64,000 nt of DNA from a virus (Duplodnaviria; Caudoviricetes). A program made the position numbers and the translations under genes. Numbering within the stretch: position 1 is the stretch's first letter; each line of letters begins with the position of its first letter. Below, piece by piece: positions 2,189 through 61,627 of the stretch. The notes below the pieces were generated by a model. That model was not told the origin of the DNA, searched no databases, and saw only the letters and a list, made by a program, of their open reading frames with translations. The stretch lies in IMG/VR virus record IMGVR_UViG_3300034073_003276; one strand, written 5' to 3'.

Positions 2189-3838
2189 TTACATCACCAC
2201 ATTGTAGTTAAGTTGTGAGTAGAGCACATAGAAATTATCAGTGTTTGAAGATGGTATAAATGGCACATCAGTTAAAGGTTCTTGTTGAGAAACCATTGTC
2301 TGGGTTCTATCTTTTCCACCACCTGCCATAATAATATTTGGTTTTGCTTCAGGTAAAGTGCCAACAGGTGTATTTGGTTTTGGCGGTGCTTGAATATCTG
2401 CAGCAGGTGCTTTTTCTTGAAGTAAACCTTCAAGATTTACTGTGCCATATGGAGGTGCTGTTTCTTGTGTTGGTGATTGTGCTGGACCTTGTAGCATATT
2501 TGCAGTATCTACCCCAAATGTCATTTCAGACATTGATGGTATTGCAGGTGTTTGTGGTTGTGATGGTGCTGCTACTTGTGCTGCTGGTGGTGCTGGAGTT
2601 GCTGCTGGTTGTGCGGATGGCTGTGCTGCTGTTGGTGTTGGTTGGTCTTCTTTTTTGCCAAAGAATGTGCCCTTTCCAAATCCAAATTCTCTTGCTACAT
2701 CCAATCCAGCAAATCCTAATCCAATACCAGGAATTGCAGATCCATAAGATAATAAACCACCAACAATGTCTCCTTGCGAAATTCTATAAGTTCCAACACC
2801 AATTGCCAATGGAGTAAGAATTTTAGAAGCAATACTACCAGTACCCTTTAAAAAACTCCGAGCGCCCTTTCCTATATTATTAACGCCTCCCAAAAATCTT
2901 GACATTGGACTACCTGCACCCAATACCTTTCCACCACTGGTAGTAATAGGTACTCTTCCACCGGGTCTTGTAATTGTTTTTGCTGCGTTAGCACCAAACC
3001 CAAGTAGTCTTCCAATTGCAGCACCTGCTAATCTAAACGGTGCCAGAGCGATTCTAGCAACAAAACTTGCCAACTTAAGAGTCAATCCAGTAATGGTTCT
3101 CATTAAGAGACCGAATCCTAGATTTACAGCAGCAAAAGCACCTATTGCAAATAATACATTCTTAATGACATTGTTTTTAATCTCTTCAAGTTTCTTAGTA
3201 TCACCTTCAGCAAGTGCTTTTAGGGTTTCAATCCCCTGATTTGTCAACCATCCAAAGAATAATGTCGTCAAGGCACCCATTATTCGGTCAAAAAGACTTG
3301 TAACCGTTTGCTGAAGTTTAGCAATCGGTCTCATTAATGCTGCTTGAATATTTTTCTCTAATTCACTTTCCTTCCCAAGACGAACTTTACGCTCTGCTAA
3401 TCTTCTTTCTGCTTCTTGTTCTTGTTTAAGTTGATTCTGCTCTAAAGCACTTTCTGCTTGAAGTTGTTTTGCAGTGTTTTGAATTCCTTGATTTAATTCA
3501 GTTACTTGTACGCGAATAACATCAAGACTCTGCTGAAGACCTCCAATTGATTGTGCGTTTGTTTGTATTTGTAATGTCTGTGCCCTATCTACTAAACTTG
3601 TTTGTGGTCTTACTACAATCGCAGATCCTGCAGCAACTGCTCCTCCGCCACCTGCTCCACCGCCAGCGGTACCACCCCCACCACCTGCTACTGTACGACC
3701 ACCAAAAACTGATCTTGGTAATGTAGTGATTCTACCAAGAGAAAATTTTTGTAGGGTAATTCTTTCCGAGCTGGTATAGTAACCACCACTTGGCTTTTCG
3801 CCTGTTTGTGCTCTTAAACCAGCTTCTGCCCTATCCAT
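2189..3838 (-). CDS. Baseplate hub/tape-measure-like structural protein
   Basis: Coiled coil, Gly/Ala-rich hydrophobic middle, Pro-rich tail; follows gp26-gp51. Confidence 0.45.
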   Translation of the reverse strand: MDRAEAGLRAQTGEKPSGGYYTSSERITLQKFSLGRITTLPRSVFGGRTVAGGGGGTAGGGAGGGGAVAAGSAIVVRPQTSLVDRAQTLQIQTNAQSIGGLQQSLDVIRVQVTELNQGIQNTAKQLQAESALEQNQLKQEQEAERRLAERKVRLGKESELEKNIQAALMRPIAKLQQTVTSLFDRIMGALTTLFFGWLTNQGIETLKALAEGDTKKLEEIKNNVIKNVLFAIGAFAAVNLGFGLLMRTITGLTLKLASFVARIALAPFRLAGAAIGRLLGFGANAAKTITRPGGRVPITTSGGKVLGAGSPMSRFLGGVNNIGKGARSFLKGTGSIASKILTPLAIGVGTYRISQGDIVGGLLSYGSAIPGIGLGFAGLDVAREFGFGKGTFFGKKEDQPTPTAAQPSAQPAATPAPPAAQVAAPSQPQTPAIPSMSEMTFGVDTANMLQGPAQSPTQETAPPYGTVNLEGLLQEKAPAADIQAPPKPNTPVGTLPEAKPNIIMAGGGKDRTQTMVSQQEPLTDVPFIPSSNTDNFYVLYSQLNYNVVM

Positions 3839-3872
3839 TCGATTGATTCTTCAGGGTTTCTTCTTCAATATA
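3831..3872 (-). pseudogene. Orphaned duplicate 3' end of gp51 (YIEEETLKNQSNG*)
   Basis: Parallels the current gp51 end YIEEENLKNNQNS*; stop overlaps the ATG of the next gene (ATGGATAG). Confidence 0.75.
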
Positions 3873-3875
3873 AGT

Positions 3876-3988
3876 TATTTATTTGATAAATATGAATACC
3901 TGATCTGGTGGTTCTTTTCAGGTTGGGATAAAGCACCTTTGGGTGCTTTTCCTGTATAAATAGCAATAACCACCAGATTAGAGTAACA
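3876..3988 (+). promoter_or_regulatory. Endonuclease leader: TAAATA, outer stem, inner hairpin, TATAAATA late promoter
   Basis: TAAATA 3887-3892; ATCTGGTGGTT 3903-3913 pairs with AACCACCAGAT 3968-3978; AAAGCACC-TTTG-GGTGCTTT 3930-3949; TATAAATA 3955-3962. Confidence 0.75.
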
Positions 3989-4618
3989 ATGAAAAATCTT
4001 AAAAGATTTTACACTTACGCATATTTGCGTGAAAACAAAACACCATATTATATTGGTAAAGGAAGTAATAATAGACTGCACAAAAGAAAAAAGAGTGATG
4101 TAAAGCCTCCAAAAGATAAATCTAGAATAATAATATTAAAACAAAATCTCACAGAAAAAGAAGCATTTAATCACGAAGAATATATGATTTATGTCTTTGG
4201 TAGAAAAGATTTAGGCACAGGTATTCTTCTTAATAAAACAAGCGGGGGCGAAGGATCAAGTGGTGCCATTCGTTCTTTAGAATTTAAATTAAATTTGAGT
4301 GAAATAAACAAAAATAAAATTCTCTCAAAGGAGCATAAAGAAAAAATAGGCAATGCACAGAAAGGAGAAAAAAATCATAATTATGGAAAATCTGCATCCA
4401 AAGAAACCAGAGAAAAAATGAGTAATGCACAATTAGGCGAAAAACATCCTAGGGCAAACTGGTGGAAACTTACTTTCTCAAATGGAAACACGATAGAAAT
4501 ATGTGGATTGCCTAGTTGGGCAAAGGAAAATAATTATAGTTGTGGAAATATTCATATGGTTTATCTAGGAAATAGAAAAAAACATAAAGACATTATAAAA
4601 GTTGAAAAAATAAGATAA
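3989..4618 (+). mobile_element. Free-standing GIY-YIG homing endonuclease (Seg-like, NUMOD3-type repeats)
   Basis: FYTYAYLRE...YYIGKG...R motif, basic low-complexity DNA-binding tail; oriented opposite to its neighbours. Confidence 0.85.
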
Positions 4619-8864: not shown

Positions 8865-9440
8865 TTCTAGATTCTTATCAAAAACTATCACATAACGGTG
8901 CTTGCGGGAGCGTTCTTTCCATTCTCCCTCAGCACCTTTTACTTTTCCACGAGAGTGCTTAGTTCCGTCTGAATAGTAGAAATCTTTTTTTGGATCTGTG
9001 AGACCCATATACTTAAAGTTACAAGCGCGATAGATTGTGCCAGAATGAAAATCACTATCAGCGTAAGAGATAATTGCCTTAACTTCAGTATCTTTTCGTA
9101 ACTGTCTAATCGCTTTTGAAACAAACCAAGAAGTGATATTATACTCGCTCTGTTGAGTTTGTGGATGAATGCAGAGTCGTGAAAGTTCGAATAATCCTTG
9201 TTGTTCATTTCTCTCTAATCCAAAGGCACCTTTTGCGATTTCAGGAACAGGAAGTCCAGTGAAAATACAGACCCCAACAGGACCTCCAATATTTAACACA
9301 TCTGTAAAAGATTTTTTATATAAAGAATAATTATATCCACTTTTGAAATCTTTTGATATGTCTTTTAGATAATGGTAATTATACAATAATTCTTTTATTT
9401 CTGATTTGGGAACCCTTTGAATATAATAATCACTTTTCAT
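8847..9440 (-). CDS. Mom-like GNAT-fold protein (putative DNA modification enzyme)
   Basis: HYL...ELSRL...SWFVS...IISYAD...H.GTIYRA.NF.Y.G resembles the phage Mu Mom family; start trimmed to MKSDYY. Confidence 0.6.
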   Translation of the reverse strand: MKSDYYIQRVPKSEIKELLYNYHYLKDISKDFKSGYNYSLYKKSFTDVLNIGGPVGVCIFTGLPVPEIAKGAFGLERNEQQGLFELSRLCIHPQTQQSEYNITSWFVSKAIRQLRKDTEVKAIISYADSDFHSGTIYRACNFKYMGLTDPKKDFYYSDGTKHSRGKVKGAEGEWKERSRKHRYVIVFDKNLELKWNS

Positions 9441-10101
9441 AAAAAACACTATACTTGTAAATATAATATTTTGATCTACCAGTCATTTTTACAGCATCTT
9501 TTATGCAATCATATACTACGCCATTATAGCATAGTTTTCTCGCTCTTGGATTTTTACCTCCCATTATATCTGAATTTTGAATACCCTTATTCCAAGGTTT
9601 TCTTCCCTTACAAGAATCACTTATTTTTTTCCTAACTTCTGGTCTTTTAGTTGGATTTTTATCTCCAACTAATTTTCCTCTTGCTCTTAAACCTTTTTCT
9701 ATATCTGACTGTCTTCTTTTTTCAGTAATAGTCTTTGGAGTTCCTCTATTTGCTTCTGCAATTTTTCTTTTATGAGATTCTGATAAAGGTTTTCCAAGTC
9801 TTGCTTTTCTTCTATTTTCAATATCCTTTTCAGTCATTATTTTTCCAGAACATCCATCCCCACCATTAGTTTTATTATGAAGAATTCCAGTTCCTAGATC
9901 TTTTCTGCCAAACACAGCAATCATATAGATTTCGTGATTAAATGCTTGTTCCTCTGTAAGATTTCTTTTTAAAAATAAAATTCTTTCCTTTGATGGTGGA
10001 TAAAAACTTCCGTGTTTTAAAAATGCTCTTCTACCCTTTCCCTTACCAATATAATAGGGTGTCCCATCTTCACGCAAATATGCGTAAGTATAATAGTCCA
10101 T
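9430..10101 (-). mobile_element. Free-standing GIY-YIG homing endonuclease (NUMOD3-type repeats)
   Basis: YYTYAYLRE...YYIGKG..RR; KPWNKG and SESHKRKIAEA repeats; N-terminus similar to 3989..4618. Confidence 0.85.
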
Positions 10102-10200
10102 CTGCTTCTAAATTAAGGTCGCAATAGTATTTATAATAAAATAGGGTGGATTTCTCCACCCTTCTCTAAAAGTGCGACCTTGTTAGAGCATTAGTATTTA
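10102..10200 (-). promoter_or_regulatory. Endonuclease leader with the same nested architecture as 3876-3988
   Basis: Minus strand: TAAATA (10200-10195), AAGGTCGCA (10181-10173), AGGGTGGA-GAAA-TCCACCCT (10162-10143), TATAAATA (10135-10128), TGCGACCTT (10123-10115). Confidence 0.75.
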
Positions 10201-10204
10201 GACA

Positions 10205-11137
10205 TCAATCATCAGATGCTAATTTTGCGAAATACGAAAGCGCATCATCGTCCTCATCTTCTTCTGCCGCAGGAGCAGCAGCGCGGCGAGTTGGTTTCAG
10301 ATTGCTGATTTCCTCACGAAGGTCATCAGTCAACTCACGGGAAGACCCACGAGTATATTCTTCCTCTTCACCTTCTTCGACATCAAGACGCACATTTGCT
10401 TTCGATCCAAGCACAGAATGAAGACGTGCTTTCAGTTCTTCATAAGTCTTGAATTGATCGGGAGAAACAAATTCAGCAAGAGAATACTGCTTCTTCCAGA
10501 TTGCTTCCAGAGCATCATCATCATCCAGCAAAGCACTCTGAGGAGCAAACTCACTGGAATCATAGTTACGATAACCAGCAACATTCTTTGCCTTCAGTTT
10601 GAAGTTGGCGCCTTGCCAGAAGTCAAACGGATCGATTGCTTCTTCATCTTCAAACTCAGGTTGCATTGCAGCAGTCAGTTTGTCAAAGATCTTCTTACCA
10701 TACTTGAAGAGGAAGACTTTACCTTCATTTTCAGGATTGGCAGGATCTTTTACCACATAGATGTTGGAAACATAAGTCAGTTTGCGCTTCTGCTTACGTG
10801 CAACCTCTTTACCAGCATCAGTGCCGTTATTCCAGAGACCAGAGTTGTGCTCACATACAGGGCACTTTTGATTCATAGTCGTCAGGCAGGTGTCAATCAA
10901 CCAACCACCAGGACCTTGGAATGCGTGACTATAAACCTTCACAAAAGGAATGTCTTCACCATCAGGGGCAGGCAGAAAACGGATTACGGCATATCCATTA
11001 CCGCTTTTATCTACGTCCATTTTCCACAGACGATCATCGGAAGGACTTCCAATAGTATTCATTTTTTCTACTTCTTTCACCAGTTTTGCGGTGAGAGAAC
11101 CAAGTTTAGATTGTTTTTTAAGGTCGGAAAAACCCAT
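10205..11137 (-). CDS. gp32: Single-stranded DNA-binding protein gp32
   Basis: GNGYAVIRFLP...CPVCE.N...YGKKIFDK...NYDSSEF; acidic tail. Confidence 0.95.
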   Translation of the reverse strand: MGFSDLKKQSKLGSLTAKLVKEVEKMNTIGSPSDDRLWKMDVDKSGNGYAVIRFLPAPDGEDIPFVKVYSHAFQGPGGWLIDTCLTTMNQKCPVCEHNSGLWNNGTDAGKEVARKQKRKLTYVSNIYVVKDPANPENEGKVFLFKYGKKIFDKLTAAMQPEFEDEEAIDPFDFWQGANFKLKAKNVAGYRNYDSSEFAPQSALLDDDDALEAIWKKQYSLAEFVSPDQFKTYEELKARLHSVLGSKANVRLDVEEGEEEEYTRGSSRELTDDLREEISNLKPTRRAAAPAAEEDEDDDALSYFAKLASDD

Positions 11138-11179
11138 TTGGATACCTCGGATAAATTGGATTCGGGGGATTACTCGGAT

Positions 11180-11208
11180 AGTATAACAGGGATTCCCTCA
11201 ACCGTCAA
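11180..11208 (-). promoter_or_regulatory. sigma70-type promoter for gp32
   Basis: TTGACG-N17-TATACT. Confidence 0.7.
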
Positions 11209-46300: not shown

Positions 46301-48810
46301 ACATTAGTGCCTGATAAGAAATCAATAGTTGCTGTAGTGGTATCTAAAGTTTCAATAGTTCCAATACCTGAAGTATTCAGATTGGTATTACTTAAATAAT
46401 CAATAGTACCAGTAGTTACATCAAGAGTCTCAATGGTACCAATACCACTATAAGAAACATTAGTGCCAGAGAGGTAATCAATGGTTGCTGTAGTGGTATC
46501 TAAGGTCTCAATGGTACCAATACCAGAAGTATTAAGATTAGTATTACTTAAGAAGTCAATAGTACCTGTAGTGGTATCTAAGGTCTCAATGGTTCCGATA
46601 CCTGAAGTATTAAGATTAGTATTACTTAAGAAGTCAATAGTACCTGTAGTGGTATCTAAGGTCTCAATGGTACCTATTCCACTATAAGAAACATTATTAC
46701 CAGAAAGGTAATCAATGGTTGCTATAGTAGTATCTAAGGTCTCAATGGTACCTATTCCACTATAAGAAACATTAGTGCCTGATAAGAAATCAATGATTGC
46801 TGTAGTGGTATCTAAAGTTTCAATGGTTCCAATACCACTATAAGAAACATTAGTGCCTGATAAGAAATCAATAGTACCTGTAGTGGTATCTAAGGTCTCA
46901 ATGGTTCCAATACCAATTGCATAAATATTTGGAACTGTTAGTTGATTAGAACTTAATACTTCAACTTCATTAATTTTATAAACTTTACCAGATTCTAAAT
47001 CAAAGTTTTCACTCGATTTTAGAGAATCGCTAGAATAATCATATGTTAAAGTTTTACGAATATTTACAGATCCAATTCCAATTCCAGCACCATCAAGAAG
47101 AAAATTAGTTCCTACTGTAGTTGCTATACCTACATTAAAATCGGCAAATTCAATTGTTGTTGAATTAACAATAAATTCCGTACCTTCTACATATAGATCA
47201 CCTTTAATTCTTACTATACCACTTGTAGTTCCAACGCCAACTGGATGAGGGTCAATAATTAAAACTTCCGGACCACTTATAGTATCTGCAGTAATATTAA
47301 TTGAAGTCGAAGAAGGTCCAGTTGAAAACTGAGTTGCAGTTATAATACCAGAAGAATCAATATTAGTATTACTTAAGAAGTCAATAGTACCAGTAGTGGT
47401 ATCTAAAGTCTCAATGGTTCCAATACCACTATAAGAAACATTAGTGCCAGAGAGGTAATCAATAGTACCAGTGGTGGTATCTAAGGTTTCAATGGTTCCA
47501 ATACCACTATAAGAAACATTAGTGCCTGATAAGAAATCAATAGTTGCTGTAGTGGTATCTAAAGTTTCAATAGTTCCAATACCACTATAAGAAACATTAG
47601 TACCAGAAAGGTAATCAATAGTACCAGTAGTGGTATCTAAGGTCTCAATGGTTCCAATACCTAAAGTATCCAGATTGGTATTACTTAAATAATCAATAGT
47701 ACCAGTAGTTACATCAAGAGTCTCAATGGTACCAATACCAGAAGTATTAAGATTAGTATTACTTAAGAAGTCAATAGTACCTGTAGTGGTATCTAAGGTC
47801 TCAATGGTTCCAATACCTGAAGTATTCAGATTAGTATTACTTAAGAAGTCAATAGTACCTGTAGTGGTATCTAAGGTCTCAATGGTTCCAATACCACTAT
47901 AAGAAACATTAGTGCCTGATAAGAAATCAATAGTACCAGTAGTTACATCAAGAGTCTCAATGGTACCAATACCAGAAGTATTAAGATTAGTATTACTTAA
48001 GAAGTCAATAGTACCTGTAGTGGTATCTAAGGTCTCAATGGTACCTATTCCACTATAAGAAACATTATTACCAGAAAGGTAATCAATGGTTGCTATAGTA
48101 GTATCTAAGGTCTCAATGGTACCTATTCCACTATAAGAAACATTAGTGCCTGATAAGAAATCAATGATTGCTGTAGTGGTATCTAAAGTTTCAATAGTTC
48201 CAATACCAGTTATATTAATATTTCTAGCATTAAGTTCGTCGAAAGTAATATCATCAGCAACATAAAGATCCCCACCAACATAAAGATCTCCACCTGTTGT
48301 TGTAATACCGCCAGCAGAGGCAAGTGTTGCGACCCCTACAACATTTAAAGTCTCTGAAATATTAGTTATATCAAGTTCCGTTATACCTTCTACATTCAGA
48401 TTTCCATTAGCATCAATAGAATCAGTAAATGTAGAAACTCCTGTGACACTTAAATTGCCAGTAAGAATTGCGTTTCTTGCAGTAAACTCATCAAAGATTA
48501 AATCATCCGCAACATAAAGATCTCCACCAACATATAAATCTCCACCAGTCGTAACAATACCACTAGTTGCCGCTAATGTAGTAATTCCAGAAACATAAAG
48601 TTGCCCAAAAGAAGAAGAGGCACTTACATCAATATTTGTAGCAGTTACAACACCTGTAAAATATCCATCTCCTACAACATATAATGCAGATGTAGCATTT
48701 GTAGTTCCTATACCAACATTACCAACAATATCTAATACGGTTTTATTTTCGGTAAAACTATTAATACCAATACTTAAATTTCTTTGTCTACCGCTGAGGA
48801 ACTTTGCCAT
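43327..48810 (-). CDS. Long Thr/Ser-rich repeat fibre or virion structural protein
   Basis: Dozens of 26-aa [16 protein letters not shown](F/Y)LS... units and [11 protein letters not shown] repeats. Confidence 0.75.
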   Translation of the reverse strand: MAKFLSGRQRNLSIGINSFTENKTVLDIVGNVGIGTTNATSALYVVGDGYFTGVVTATNIDVSASSSFGQLYVSGITTLAATSGIVTTGGDLYVGGDLYVADDLIFDEFTARNAILTGNLSVTGVSTFTDSIDANGNLNVEGITELDITNISETLNVVGVATLASAGGITTTGGDLYVGGDLYVADDITFDELNARNINITGIGTIETLDTTTAIIDFLSGTNVSYSGIGTIETLDTTIATIDYLSGNNVSYSGIGTIETLDTTTGTIDFLSNTNLNTSGIGTIETLDVTTGTIDFLSGTNVSYSGIGTIETLDTTTGTIDFLSNTNLNTSGIGTIETLDTTTGTIDFLSNTNLNTSGIGTIETLDVTTGTIDYLSNTNLDTLGIGTIETLDTTTGTIDYLSGTNVSYSGIGTIETLDTTTATIDFLSGTNVSYSGIGTIETLDTTTGTIDYLSGTNVSYSGIGTIETLDTTTGTIDFLSNTNIDSSGIITATQFSTGPSSTSINITADTISGPEVLIIDPHPVGVGTTSGIVRIKGDLYVEGTEFIVNSTTIEFADFNVGIATTVGTNFLLDGAGIGIGSVNIRKTLTYDYSSDSLKSSENFDLESGKVYKINEVEVLSSNQLTVPNIYAIGIGTIETLDTTTGTIDFLSGTNVSYSGIGTIETLDTTTAIIDFLSGTNVSYSGIGTIETLDTTIATIDYLSGNNVSYSGIGTIETLDTTTGTIDFLSNTNLNTSGIGTIETLDTTTGTIDFLSNTNLNTSGIGTIETLDTTTATIDYLSGTNVSYSGIGTIETLDVTTGTIDYLSNTNLNTSGIGTIETLDTTTATIDFLSGTNVSYSGIGTIETLDTTTGTIDYLSGTNVSYSGIGTIETLDTTTGTIDFLSNTNLNNTGIATLGIVTSNQLYVSGVSTFVGVSTFSGDLYVGGDLYVADDVVFDEISANNINVSGIGTIETLDVTTGTIDYLSNTNLNNTGIATLGIVTTSQLYVSGVSTFVGVSTFSGDLYVGGDLYVADDVVFDEISARNINITGIGTIETLDTTTGTIDFLLNENLFVTGFSTFNGISTFNGDLYVRGDLYVADDVVFDEISARNINITGIGTIETLDTTTGTIDFLSNTNLNNTGIATLGIVTASQLYVSGFSTFNGISTFNGDLYVGGDLYVADDVVFDEISARNINITGIGTIEILDVTTGTIDFLSNTNLNNTGIATLGIVTSNQLYVSGVSTFVGVSTFSGDLYVGGDLYVADDITFDELNARNINITGIGTIETLDVTTGTIDFLLNENLFVTGFSTFNGISTFNGDLYVRGDLYVADDVVFDEISANNINITGIGTIEILDVTTGTIDFLSNTNLNNTGIATLGIVTASQLYVSGVSTFVGVGTFSGDLYVGGDLYVADDIVFDELSANNINVSGIGTIETLDTTTGTIDYLSNTNLNTSGIGTIETLDTTTGTIDYLSGTNVSYSGIGTIETLDTATATIDFLSGTNVSYSGIGTIETLDTTTGTIDYLSGTNVSYSGIGTIETLDTTTGTIDFLSNTNLNTSGIGTIETLDVTTGTIDYLSGTNVSYSGIGSIETLDTTTGTIDFLSNTNINNTGIATLGIVTVSQLYVSGVTTATTFYGNLVGVATTALNLNRDVIAGSGLGGGGTLTSDVTLDVNVGTGITISSDSVALKNGDNLTDNRIVKWDDGNGQLTNSIITDTGTNIGVGSTQPTSKLQVIGDIEINSTTVTGSATSTLSTILQTSIHSGLSTSAYRFVEYTIQATEGTNFQCTKILTLHDNITAYHTEYGTVYNNTPVASFDVDISGGNLVLLATGSSASATNYVINFIATKI

Positions 48811-59690: not shown

Positions 59691-60294
59691 AATGTTTTAG
59701 TGTTTTTTCTGTAAGGTTAATGATTTCAGTTATAGGCAATTCTACCATATAACACTCTGTATATCCACTATCTGTGGTCTTAAAATTAATTTTATAATTT
59801 TGATATTTTTGATGAATAAACTTTTCAAGGTGATGCACTTGATAATGTATACCTTTCCATATTTTTATTACACTATGAAGTTTATTTTTAGTATGATTTG
59901 ATAGTTTATTAAAACTCCTACCAACTTTATAAACTAATTTTCCATCAAGATAAACAATCACCAAATACAAATAATCAGTATCAAAATATCTTTTACTCCA
60001 AGGATTTTGATAATTGTTTCCTTTTAATTTTTCTCCATATTTTTTAACTCTTTCATCAGTATCTTTTGTTAGACCTTTATTCCAAGATACTTGTGCTCCT
60101 TTTACTCCCTTATTCCAAGGTTCTTTTCCAATCTGCCATTCAGACCAATTCCTAGAAATATTACAAGATTTTATGTGCTTATATACACTCGGTTTTGGAA
60201 CATTAAGTTGTCTTGAAATCTCATAAGAAGAAAGACCAGACAAATACATTTGTTCCCAAAGTTTCTTATCATCATCAGTATATTTCACATTCAT
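59680..60294 (-). mobile_element. Putative endonuclease: HTH, WNKG repeats and a C-terminal GIY-YIG-like domain, directly downstream of psbA
   Basis: S.YEISRQLNV...VY HTH; EPWNKG/SWNKG; YLYLV...YKVGRS...LEK.IH; own TATAAATA promoter; start trimmed to MNVKY. Confidence 0.6.
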
Positions 60295-60324
60295 TGTGGT
60301 CTGCTCATAGTTATTATTATTTAT

Positions 60325-60348
60325 AAAAAAGAGACCTTTGCAGGTCTC
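60325..60348 (-). terminator. psbA terminator hairpin
   Basis: GAGACC-TGCAAA-GGTCTC-TTTTTT on the minus strand. Confidence 0.7.
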
Positions 60349-60376
60349 CATATTATACCATATATTTAGTTTTATA

Positions 60377-61456: not shown

Positions 61457-61502
61457 TTTCGTTAAAGGGTAAGTAGTGCTCAGGGGGAACTGAACGAATA
61501 CA

Positions 61503-61572
61503 TTATATCCCACACCACCCTCCAGTGTGGGTATGAGAGACGTGCTTTATACACCCATAGGTCTCGGTTAAC
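61503..61572 (-). ncRNA. PhotoRC-II-like RNA in the psbA leader
   Basis: CCGAGACC...CGTCTCTCATACCCACAC-TGGAGGGTG-GTGTGGGA, a paired element upstream of psbA resembling the recalled motif. Confidence 0.6.
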
Positions 61573-61627
61573 AGGTGTGGACAATGTTAAGAATTATGAG
61601 GAATCCGTAACATTTGTTTACCTATTT

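Follow-up and report, generated by a model that had tools for sequence, protein, structure and literature searches.

A leader with a nested late promoter box and a predicted long-range helix over the ribosome site precedes homing endonuclease genes in cyanophages

In a T4-like cyanomyovirus, a free-standing homing endonuclease gene is preceded by a compact leader in which two distant arms are complementary to each other, the downstream arm reaching almost to the start codon, and in which a terminator-like hairpin and a late promoter box lie between the arms. Leaders with the same elements and different arm sequences recur in IMG/VR contigs and phage isolates; they are linked exclusively to endonuclease genes, and all three of their helices covary. 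We consider it probable that the module is a portable 5′ control leader of the endonuclease gene, which would combine masking of the ribosome-binding site (RBS), of the type known from phage T4, with a nested late promoter. Homing endonuclease genes are selfish and have to spare the phage in which they reside; their control has been tested directly for few genes of the T4 family, such as I-TevI and Aeh1 mobE. In cyanophages, a standard and exchangeable leader serves several unrelated endonuclease families, presumably by keeping them quiet.

The window, as we call the whole stretch of 64,000 nucleotides that was analysed (IMG/VR record IMGVR_UViG_3300034073_003276), comes from a T4-like cyanomyovirus, with gp32 and a T4 baseplate protein among its genes. 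The leader lies between two of them:

10205..11137, minus strand: gene for gp32, the single-stranded DNA (ssDNA)-binding protein (Pfam gp32, E = 1.8e-50; phage matches annotated as ssDNA-binding protein)
9430..10101, minus strand: homing endonuclease gene 2 (223 amino acids; GIY-YIG-like N-terminus and NUMOD3 repeats)

The gp32 gene is the co-directional upstream neighbour, and its transcripts would run into the module. In endonuclease 2, the NUMOD3 match (E = 5.9e-8) is above the Pfam cut-off, so that this nuclease-associated DNA-binding module is present, and the protein also matches phrog_314, ‘homing endonuclease’, at E = 6e-14. At its N-terminus, the YxY...YxGKG stretch resembles a GIY-YIG protein of solved structure only weakly (E = 0.5), and a search with Pfam GIY-YIG returned no match at E <= 0.1. 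Megablast of the region against isolates matched gp32 only, and neither the leader nor the enzyme. In S-SKS1 and S-T4, which are relatives without the endonuclease, gp32 abuts a convergent baseplate gene with no spacer in between; thus, the whole module arrived with the insert.

The other end of the endonuclease gene is also tightly packed. In ATGAAAAGTGA (9430-9440, minus strand), the ATG of a Mom-like gene (Pfam PF25680, E = 1e-21) shares bases with the final codons and the stop codon of endonuclease 2, and the Mom-like gene would therefore be expressed from the endonuclease's late promoter. The main text of Dassa et al. describes a similar 3′ overlap for endonuclease inserts (PMC2677866).

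On the minus strand, the module extends from 10202 to 10099 and comprises, in this order, an upstream box (P1), the 5′ arm, a terminator hairpin with its U tail, a second box (P2), the 3′ arm and the ATG. The individual features are as follows:

10202-10195, minus strand: P1, upstream late-promoter-like box TCTAAATA, which includes TAAATA at 10200-10195
10189, minus strand: predicted start of transcription from P1, a G, the sixth nucleotide after the box
10190-10173, minus strand: 5′ arm (anti-RBS strand), which pairs with 10123-10103 in the minimum free energy (MFE) fold and in a duplex calculation, and for which covariation was counted
10190-10183, minus strand: segment a of the 5′ arm, TGCTCTAA, followed by one unpaired C
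10181-10173, minus strand: segment b of the 5′ arm, AAGGTCGCA
10169-10164, minus strand: a′, TTAGAG, also complementary to segment a; a and a′ form a local hairpin (H1) with segment b in its loop
10162-10133, minus strand: intrinsic-terminator-like hairpin including its tail, called by a terminator scan
10135-10128, minus strand: P2, a perfect T4-type late promoter box, TATAAATA, between the two arms
10122, minus strand: start of transcription from P2 as predicted from position only, a G, the second nucleotide of the 3′ arm
10123-10103, minus strand: 3′ arm, made up of b′ (TGCGACCTT, 10123-10115), AAT and a″ (TTAGAAGCA, 10111-10103)

The 5′ end of the P1 box lies 3 nt past the gp32 stop codon (10207-10205). 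Gaps of 13 nt from TAAATA to AAGGTCGCA, 4 nt from the P2 box to b′ and 13 nt from TGCGACCTT to the ATG (10101-10099) define the spacing, and every element between 10102 and 10200 is placed exactly as a preliminary description of the sequence had it. The outer helix is longer than was first described: TGCTCTAA also pairs, with TTAGA-A-GCA (10111-10103), so that there are 17 pairs in all. It is a long-range helix enclosing ~50 nt, and its 3′ arm covers the ribosome-binding region, ending 4 nt before the AUG; a single G stands between the arm and the ATG. The terminator stem, AGGGTGGA/TCCACCCT (10162-10143), has 8 bp, five of them G-C pairs, and a GAAA loop, and is followed by the tail ATTTTATTAT. 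The G+C-rich stem, short loop and U-rich tail of an intrinsic terminator are all present, with an A interrupting the tail. The leader folds at -38.7 kcal/mol (z = -6.1), and none of 200 shuffles folded as well.

Relatives of both endonucleases of the window were fetched from IMG/VR and their leaders were read; most have the same architecture (type A) with different arms. With MAFFT and RNAalifold alone, no more than the outermost 8 pairs are recovered, since arms that differ in length lose their register. For a covariance model (R1), the structure was instead written by hand from the window copy, after which the leaders were realigned. At E < 0.01, the only R1 hits in the 64-kb window are the two endonuclease leaders (105 and 54 bits). 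A weaker hit follows psbA, and so the window holds two further sites of interest:

3885..3991, plus strand: sibling module with unrelated arms, before endonuclease gene 1 (3989-4618); R1 54 bits, E = 1.4e-6
60288..60376, minus strand: reduced form after psbA, with CTAAATA, a terminator with a U run, TATAAATA at 60325-60318 and a different endonuclease start

The sibling module has the order and spacing of the 10202-10099 module, and the fold of 3870-4000 has z = -5.4; the earlier impression that the architecture mirrors 3876-3988 with unrelated stems was correct. So was the remark that both enzymes start with YTYAYLRE...YYIGKG: endonucleases 1 and 2 are 56% identical over their first 120 residues, which include this start. 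In the ORF map, the upstream neighbour of the sibling module is on the opposite strand. The psbA-linked site had been described as a reduced form at 60318-60368; it is present, but consists of terminator and late promoter only, with no outer (masking) helix, and R1 scores it at 28 bits (E = 0.04) with 8 mispaired outer-helix positions.

Two observations concern the surroundings of the sibling module. A AATAAATA box (3876-3882, minus strand), 37 nt upstream of a divergent gene (2189-3838), stands back to back with the sibling's outer box, giving a short spacer with late-promoter-like boxes in both directions. Endonuclease 1 is GIY-YIG-like, and its C-terminal half with the DNA-binding NUMOD3 (4262-4603, plus strand) shares 46% identity with the corresponding half of an HNH-type endonuclease in another contig (L051:1138-1914), which points to an exchange of domains between nuclease families that have the leader in common as well.

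A comparison of homologue leaders for covariation and conserved spacing had been proposed at the outset, and its outcome favours a structure-conserved module: R1 detected 50 distinct copies among IMG/VR contigs and isolates, all with the same order and spacing, and their 32 different inner arms, which have no conserved sequence, are each still complementary to their partners. Pairing was counted in alignments that were fitted to R1 and are thus biased towards pairing, so that the control in which columns are slid and an alignment-free matrix are the better guides: among 33 distinct copies related to the training set, 91.9% of the cells are paired, versus 72% in shuffled and 40-49% in slid alignments (by 1-3 columns), and among 19 non-training copies (from other places in IMG/VR and from isolates) the values are 92.1%, 65% and 36-47%. 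Compensatory changes are seen at 20 of 23 pairs in the former set and at 21 of 23 in the latter. In the matrix, which uses no alignment, arms pair with their own partners at a mean of -22.7 kcal/mol and with the partners from other leaders at -12.3 kcal/mol. In the terminator stem, all seven of seven pairs have changed on both sides in other copies. The 3′ strand ends before the AUG, leaving it unpaired, in each of the 22 leaders analysed. Where the outer helix departs from Watson-Crick pairing, 14 cells are G-U and two are A-C; this excess of G-U points to an RNA of this strand rather than to a DNA palindrome.

Comparison with Rfam, also proposed earlier, left the leaders unmatched. In the window at the gathering threshold, the only match is a PhotoRC-II RNA motif upstream of psbA (61495-61589, minus strand; RF01717, 81 bits, E = 1.7e-12). 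In 14 homologue loci at E <= 1, no leader was matched, and the only matches, elsewhere in these loci, were to tRNA and to a glutamine riboswitch; the latter (L022:1964-2020) is sub-threshold, with 31 bits versus a gathering score of 35, and lies just downstream of an endonuclease gene. With covariation this clear and no Rfam entry, the leader could be annotated by means of a covariance model.

The two boxes are conserved along with the helices. In T4, the late box spans -13 to -6 (PMC2988020), which puts the start at the sixth base after the box. The sequence NATAAATA is the cyanomyovirus late promoter, and g55, g33 and g45 are reported in all cyanomyoviruses (PMC2984593). Among the 50 copies, the P2 box is TATAAATA in 47, a purine occupies the predicted +1 in 49, and the 3′ arm most often begins at the fifth nucleotide after the box (31/50). 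A box at the P1 position is found in every copy, as NATAAATA in 32 and as NCTAAATA in 18; the helix usually starts at the fifth nucleotide after it, and the sixth is a purine in 47 of 50. Thus, the distance from P1 to the 5′ arm equals that from P2 to the 3′ arm. In the window, 9 of 19 occurrences of CTAAATA have a gene start no more than 60 nt downstream, versus 2.7% of random positions, and ATAAATA, with 8 of 18, is just as gene-proximal; overall, ATAAATA is scarcer in the window than in 99 of 100 shuffles. A literature search for CTAAATA as a published cyanophage promoter variant returned nothing relevant.

The module had been proposed to travel with the YTYAYLRE family of endonucleases. 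It does travel with endonuclease genes, but is not limited to that family. The downstream frame was read for 18 of the 19 non-training copies, and each stands directly before a homing-endonuclease-like gene; for the S-SRM01 copy at 48433-48536 the endonuclease call rests on the record's annotation, and a weak S-N03 match was left out. Behind the module there are at least four N-terminal types of endonuclease: YTYAYLRE (as in the window), IYTYKITF...YYYYG, YVYYSYEEYG and HNH (EKHHTFP), the last with NUMOD3 repeats and matches to phrog_655 and phrog_314 ‘homing endonuclease’. Isolates with the module include S-SRM01, S-B68 and B23. One 61-kb contig has five copies, and the freshwater isolate S-SRM01 has six, before genes annotated as HNH endonuclease, NUMOD3 protein, ‘hypothetical’ and ‘translation initiation factor 2’; in such genomes, the arms differ between the five or six copies. 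Enzymes 84-91% identical to the window's carry unrelated arms (L010-L012), and a nearly identical leader is found before different enzyme types (L043, L064, L077). Judged from these sequences, leader and enzyme are reshuffled independently.

Since the module marks endonuclease insertions, the leader model could also correct annotations: endonuclease genes behind it are labelled ‘translation initiation factor 2’ or ‘hypothetical protein’ in MW015081.1 (62515-63273) and MN695335.1 (41542-42165).

From this anatomy we infer the promoter activities, the terminator activity and a translational effect, and the reading that we consider probable, masking in cis, would work as follows. An RNA that arrives from upstream, by read-through from gp32 or by a start at P1, would carry the 5′ arm. 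It would meet the intrinsic terminator first and mostly end there; in the survivors, a 17-bp duplex between the 5′ arm and the sequence leading up to the AUG would mask the ribosome site. Transcripts from P2 would begin at the 3′ arm, without the masking strand, and could be translated. A nuclease that could do harm would then be made late and in small amounts. For the window copy, the region from -14 to +4 around the AUG has a computed mean unpaired probability of 0.47 in the long RNA and of 0.73 in the RNA started at P2, a modest difference because the AUG itself is never paired; the region before the AUG is a weak Shine-Dalgarno match. Public RNA runs (Logan contigs with small word shares over 9400-11200) gave only pieces of relatives' gp32, which is evidence neither way, and in one contig from a run of unknown kind the module is present with a different upstream sequence.

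Much of this logic has precedents. For I-TevI and Aeh1 mobE, an RBS-masking hairpin with a nested late promoter has been shown experimentally, and a similar arrangement is reported for I-TevII, I-TevIII and segB as well as for the T4 genes e, soc and 49 (PMC2988022, PMC3014915). The remark that the leader is no named motif thus holds for Rfam, but its core is the known T4-type RBS-masking hairpin of these reviews. As in the T4 and Aeh1 leaders, the late promoter lies inside the helix, the 3′ strand lies over the ribosome site and a selfish nuclease gene follows; there, long transcripts are masked and late ones, which lack the 5′ strand, are translated, and the cyanophage module would have the same effect. 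In T4 and Aeh1, going by the two reviews, a hairpin lies over the ribosome site, whereas the helix here is long-range, and the cyanophage module has in addition a nested terminator, an upstream promoter-like box and a local hairpin that uses the anti-RBS strand. Moreover, it is common to several endonuclease families, with up to six copies per genome.

Closer in habitat are the leaders of ‘fractured gene’ endonucleases in marine metagenomes, in which Dassa et al. (2009) noted a hairpin before the start codon in 15 of 16 cases (PMC2677866). These endonucleases are free-standing GIY-YIG and Vsr-like enzymes; ten of the leaders include TATAAATA, and the authors read them by analogy with Aeh1 mobE (PMC2677866). 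The likeness to the present module lies in hairpin-bearing leaders of marine phage-like endonucleases. In contrast, the paper has two mutually pairing motifs of conserved sequence, whereas the arms in the window are not conserved in sequence, and neither an upstream promoter box nor a nested terminator or alternative hairpin is described in its main text (PMC2677866). The principle is thus already known, and the main text of that paper noted related hairpins in 2009 (PMC2677866). What appears to be new is the compound module, with its two late boxes, bistable anti-RBS strand, nested terminator and long-range helix, and also its use by several endonuclease families in common and in multiple copies per genome with mutually non-matching arms. 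Such arm pairs could serve as orthogonal translational switches.

Two other explanations leave RNA masking aside. The inverted repeat might act as DNA, either as an operator through which the endonuclease represses itself or as a cruciform or recombination site that moves the cassette. I-TevI does bind an operator overlapping its own late promoter and so represses itself (PMC2988022, PMC2790892); the repeat here likewise brackets a late promoter, and the reshuffling of leaders and reading frames (L043, L064, L077) would suit a mobile cassette. A protein cannot, however, read arms that are unrelated between enzymes as similar as those of L010-L012 and the window, and the 32 inner arms have no sequence in common. 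The 14:2 ratio of G-U to A-C is unexpected for a DNA palindrome, and the position of the 3′ arm follows the start codon rather than the promoter. We therefore regard a DNA-level role as very unlikely. The preliminary description had offered a ‘cis-regulatory RNA or operator module’; the unrelated arms of near-identical enzymes and the G-U asymmetry speak for the RNA device and against the protein operator. More prosaically, the spacer could be ordinary punctuation, a terminator for gp32 and then a late promoter, with complementary outer 9-mers by chance. A terminator followed by TATAAATA does occur after psbA without an outer helix. Covariation of the outer helix across 50 copies, together with the fold z-score of -6.1, excludes chance repeats, and where relatives lack the endonuclease, there is no spacer behind gp32 either; this explanation is scarcely credible.

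Masking in cis, in its plain form, does not explain why the upstream box and H1 are conserved in all copies, nor why the 5′ arm is kept in copies that stand head-to-head with their neighbour. An extension of the cis model, which does not exclude it, is that P1, H1 and the terminator together make up a very small gene, whose RNA product of ~54 nt (10189 to ~10136) masks mainly in trans. The loop of this RNA would show segment b; pairing would begin there, at the 5′ end of the P2 mRNA, and zip on over the ribosome site, so that the RNA would be an antisense-like repressor, encoded on the same strand, holding endonuclease synthesis down throughout late infection. The constant distance of the P1 box from the arm, the purine at its predicted start and the equal gene-proximity of CTAAATA and ATAAATA all suit a promoter at this position. 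H1 plus terminator is the MFE structure of the segment from P1 to P2 in 26 of 28 distinct copies, the H1 stems covary, and a loosely defined 5′ hairpin is found in 50 of 50. Copies with a divergent upstream neighbour (3885-3991 in the window, L034-L041) keep the 5′ arm, although they have no co-directional upstream gene and thus no upstream transcript is expected there. Orthologous insertions (L035 versus L037) differ by four compensated changes in the inner arm, and the predicted duplex is computed at -20.7 kcal/mol.

On the other hand, deviations from the consensus are more frequent in P1 than in P2, with C at the second position of P1 in 18 of 50 copies. H1 could be a mere folding intermediate or an RNA stabiliser. 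Promoters of equal strength for repressor and target would lead to near-complete shut-off. The differences between arms within one genome are what orthogonal regulators would need, but could also reflect drift or selection against recombination between repeats. On balance, we put masking in trans forward tentatively, as a possibility clearly weaker than masking in cis. It is similarly doubtful, though conceivable, that copy-specific arms let five or six RNA pairs work in one genome without cross-talk.

Antisense RNAs such as RNA-OUT, which pairs with RNA-IN in IS10, and those of type I toxin-antitoxin systems use a hairpin loop to pair with the 5′ end of an mRNA, over the ribosome site. A P1 RNA, if there is one, would resemble them as a stem-loop with a terminator, the loop matching the extreme 5′ end of the message for a potentially harmful protein from a mobile element; unlike them, it would be encoded on the same strand as its target and upstream of it. 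For T4-like phages, the module provides a concrete candidate small regulatory RNA. According to a 2010 review, no small regulatory RNA had been characterised in T4 (PMC3014915). If masking in trans is true, the P1 RNAs would be the first family of trans-acting regulatory RNAs of T4-like phages dedicated to taming homing endonucleases.

A second kind of leader (type B) was seen before YTYAYLRE-type genes in IMG/VR (L015:1215-1330, L022, L023, L025, L028, L029 and L030). It has a bipartite hairpin with the conserved stems GTGGGC..CAA / TTG..GTAAGTCCCAC (in L015 and L022-L030 also summarised as GTGGGC...GTCCCAC) and an anti-RBS arm of 12-15 nt in the loop. An ATAAATA box comes next, followed by the complement of this arm, which continues into the ATG; the copy-specific duplexes are computed at -19 to -30 kcal/mol. 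To judge from the main text of that paper, type B is probably what Dassa et al. (2009) drew.
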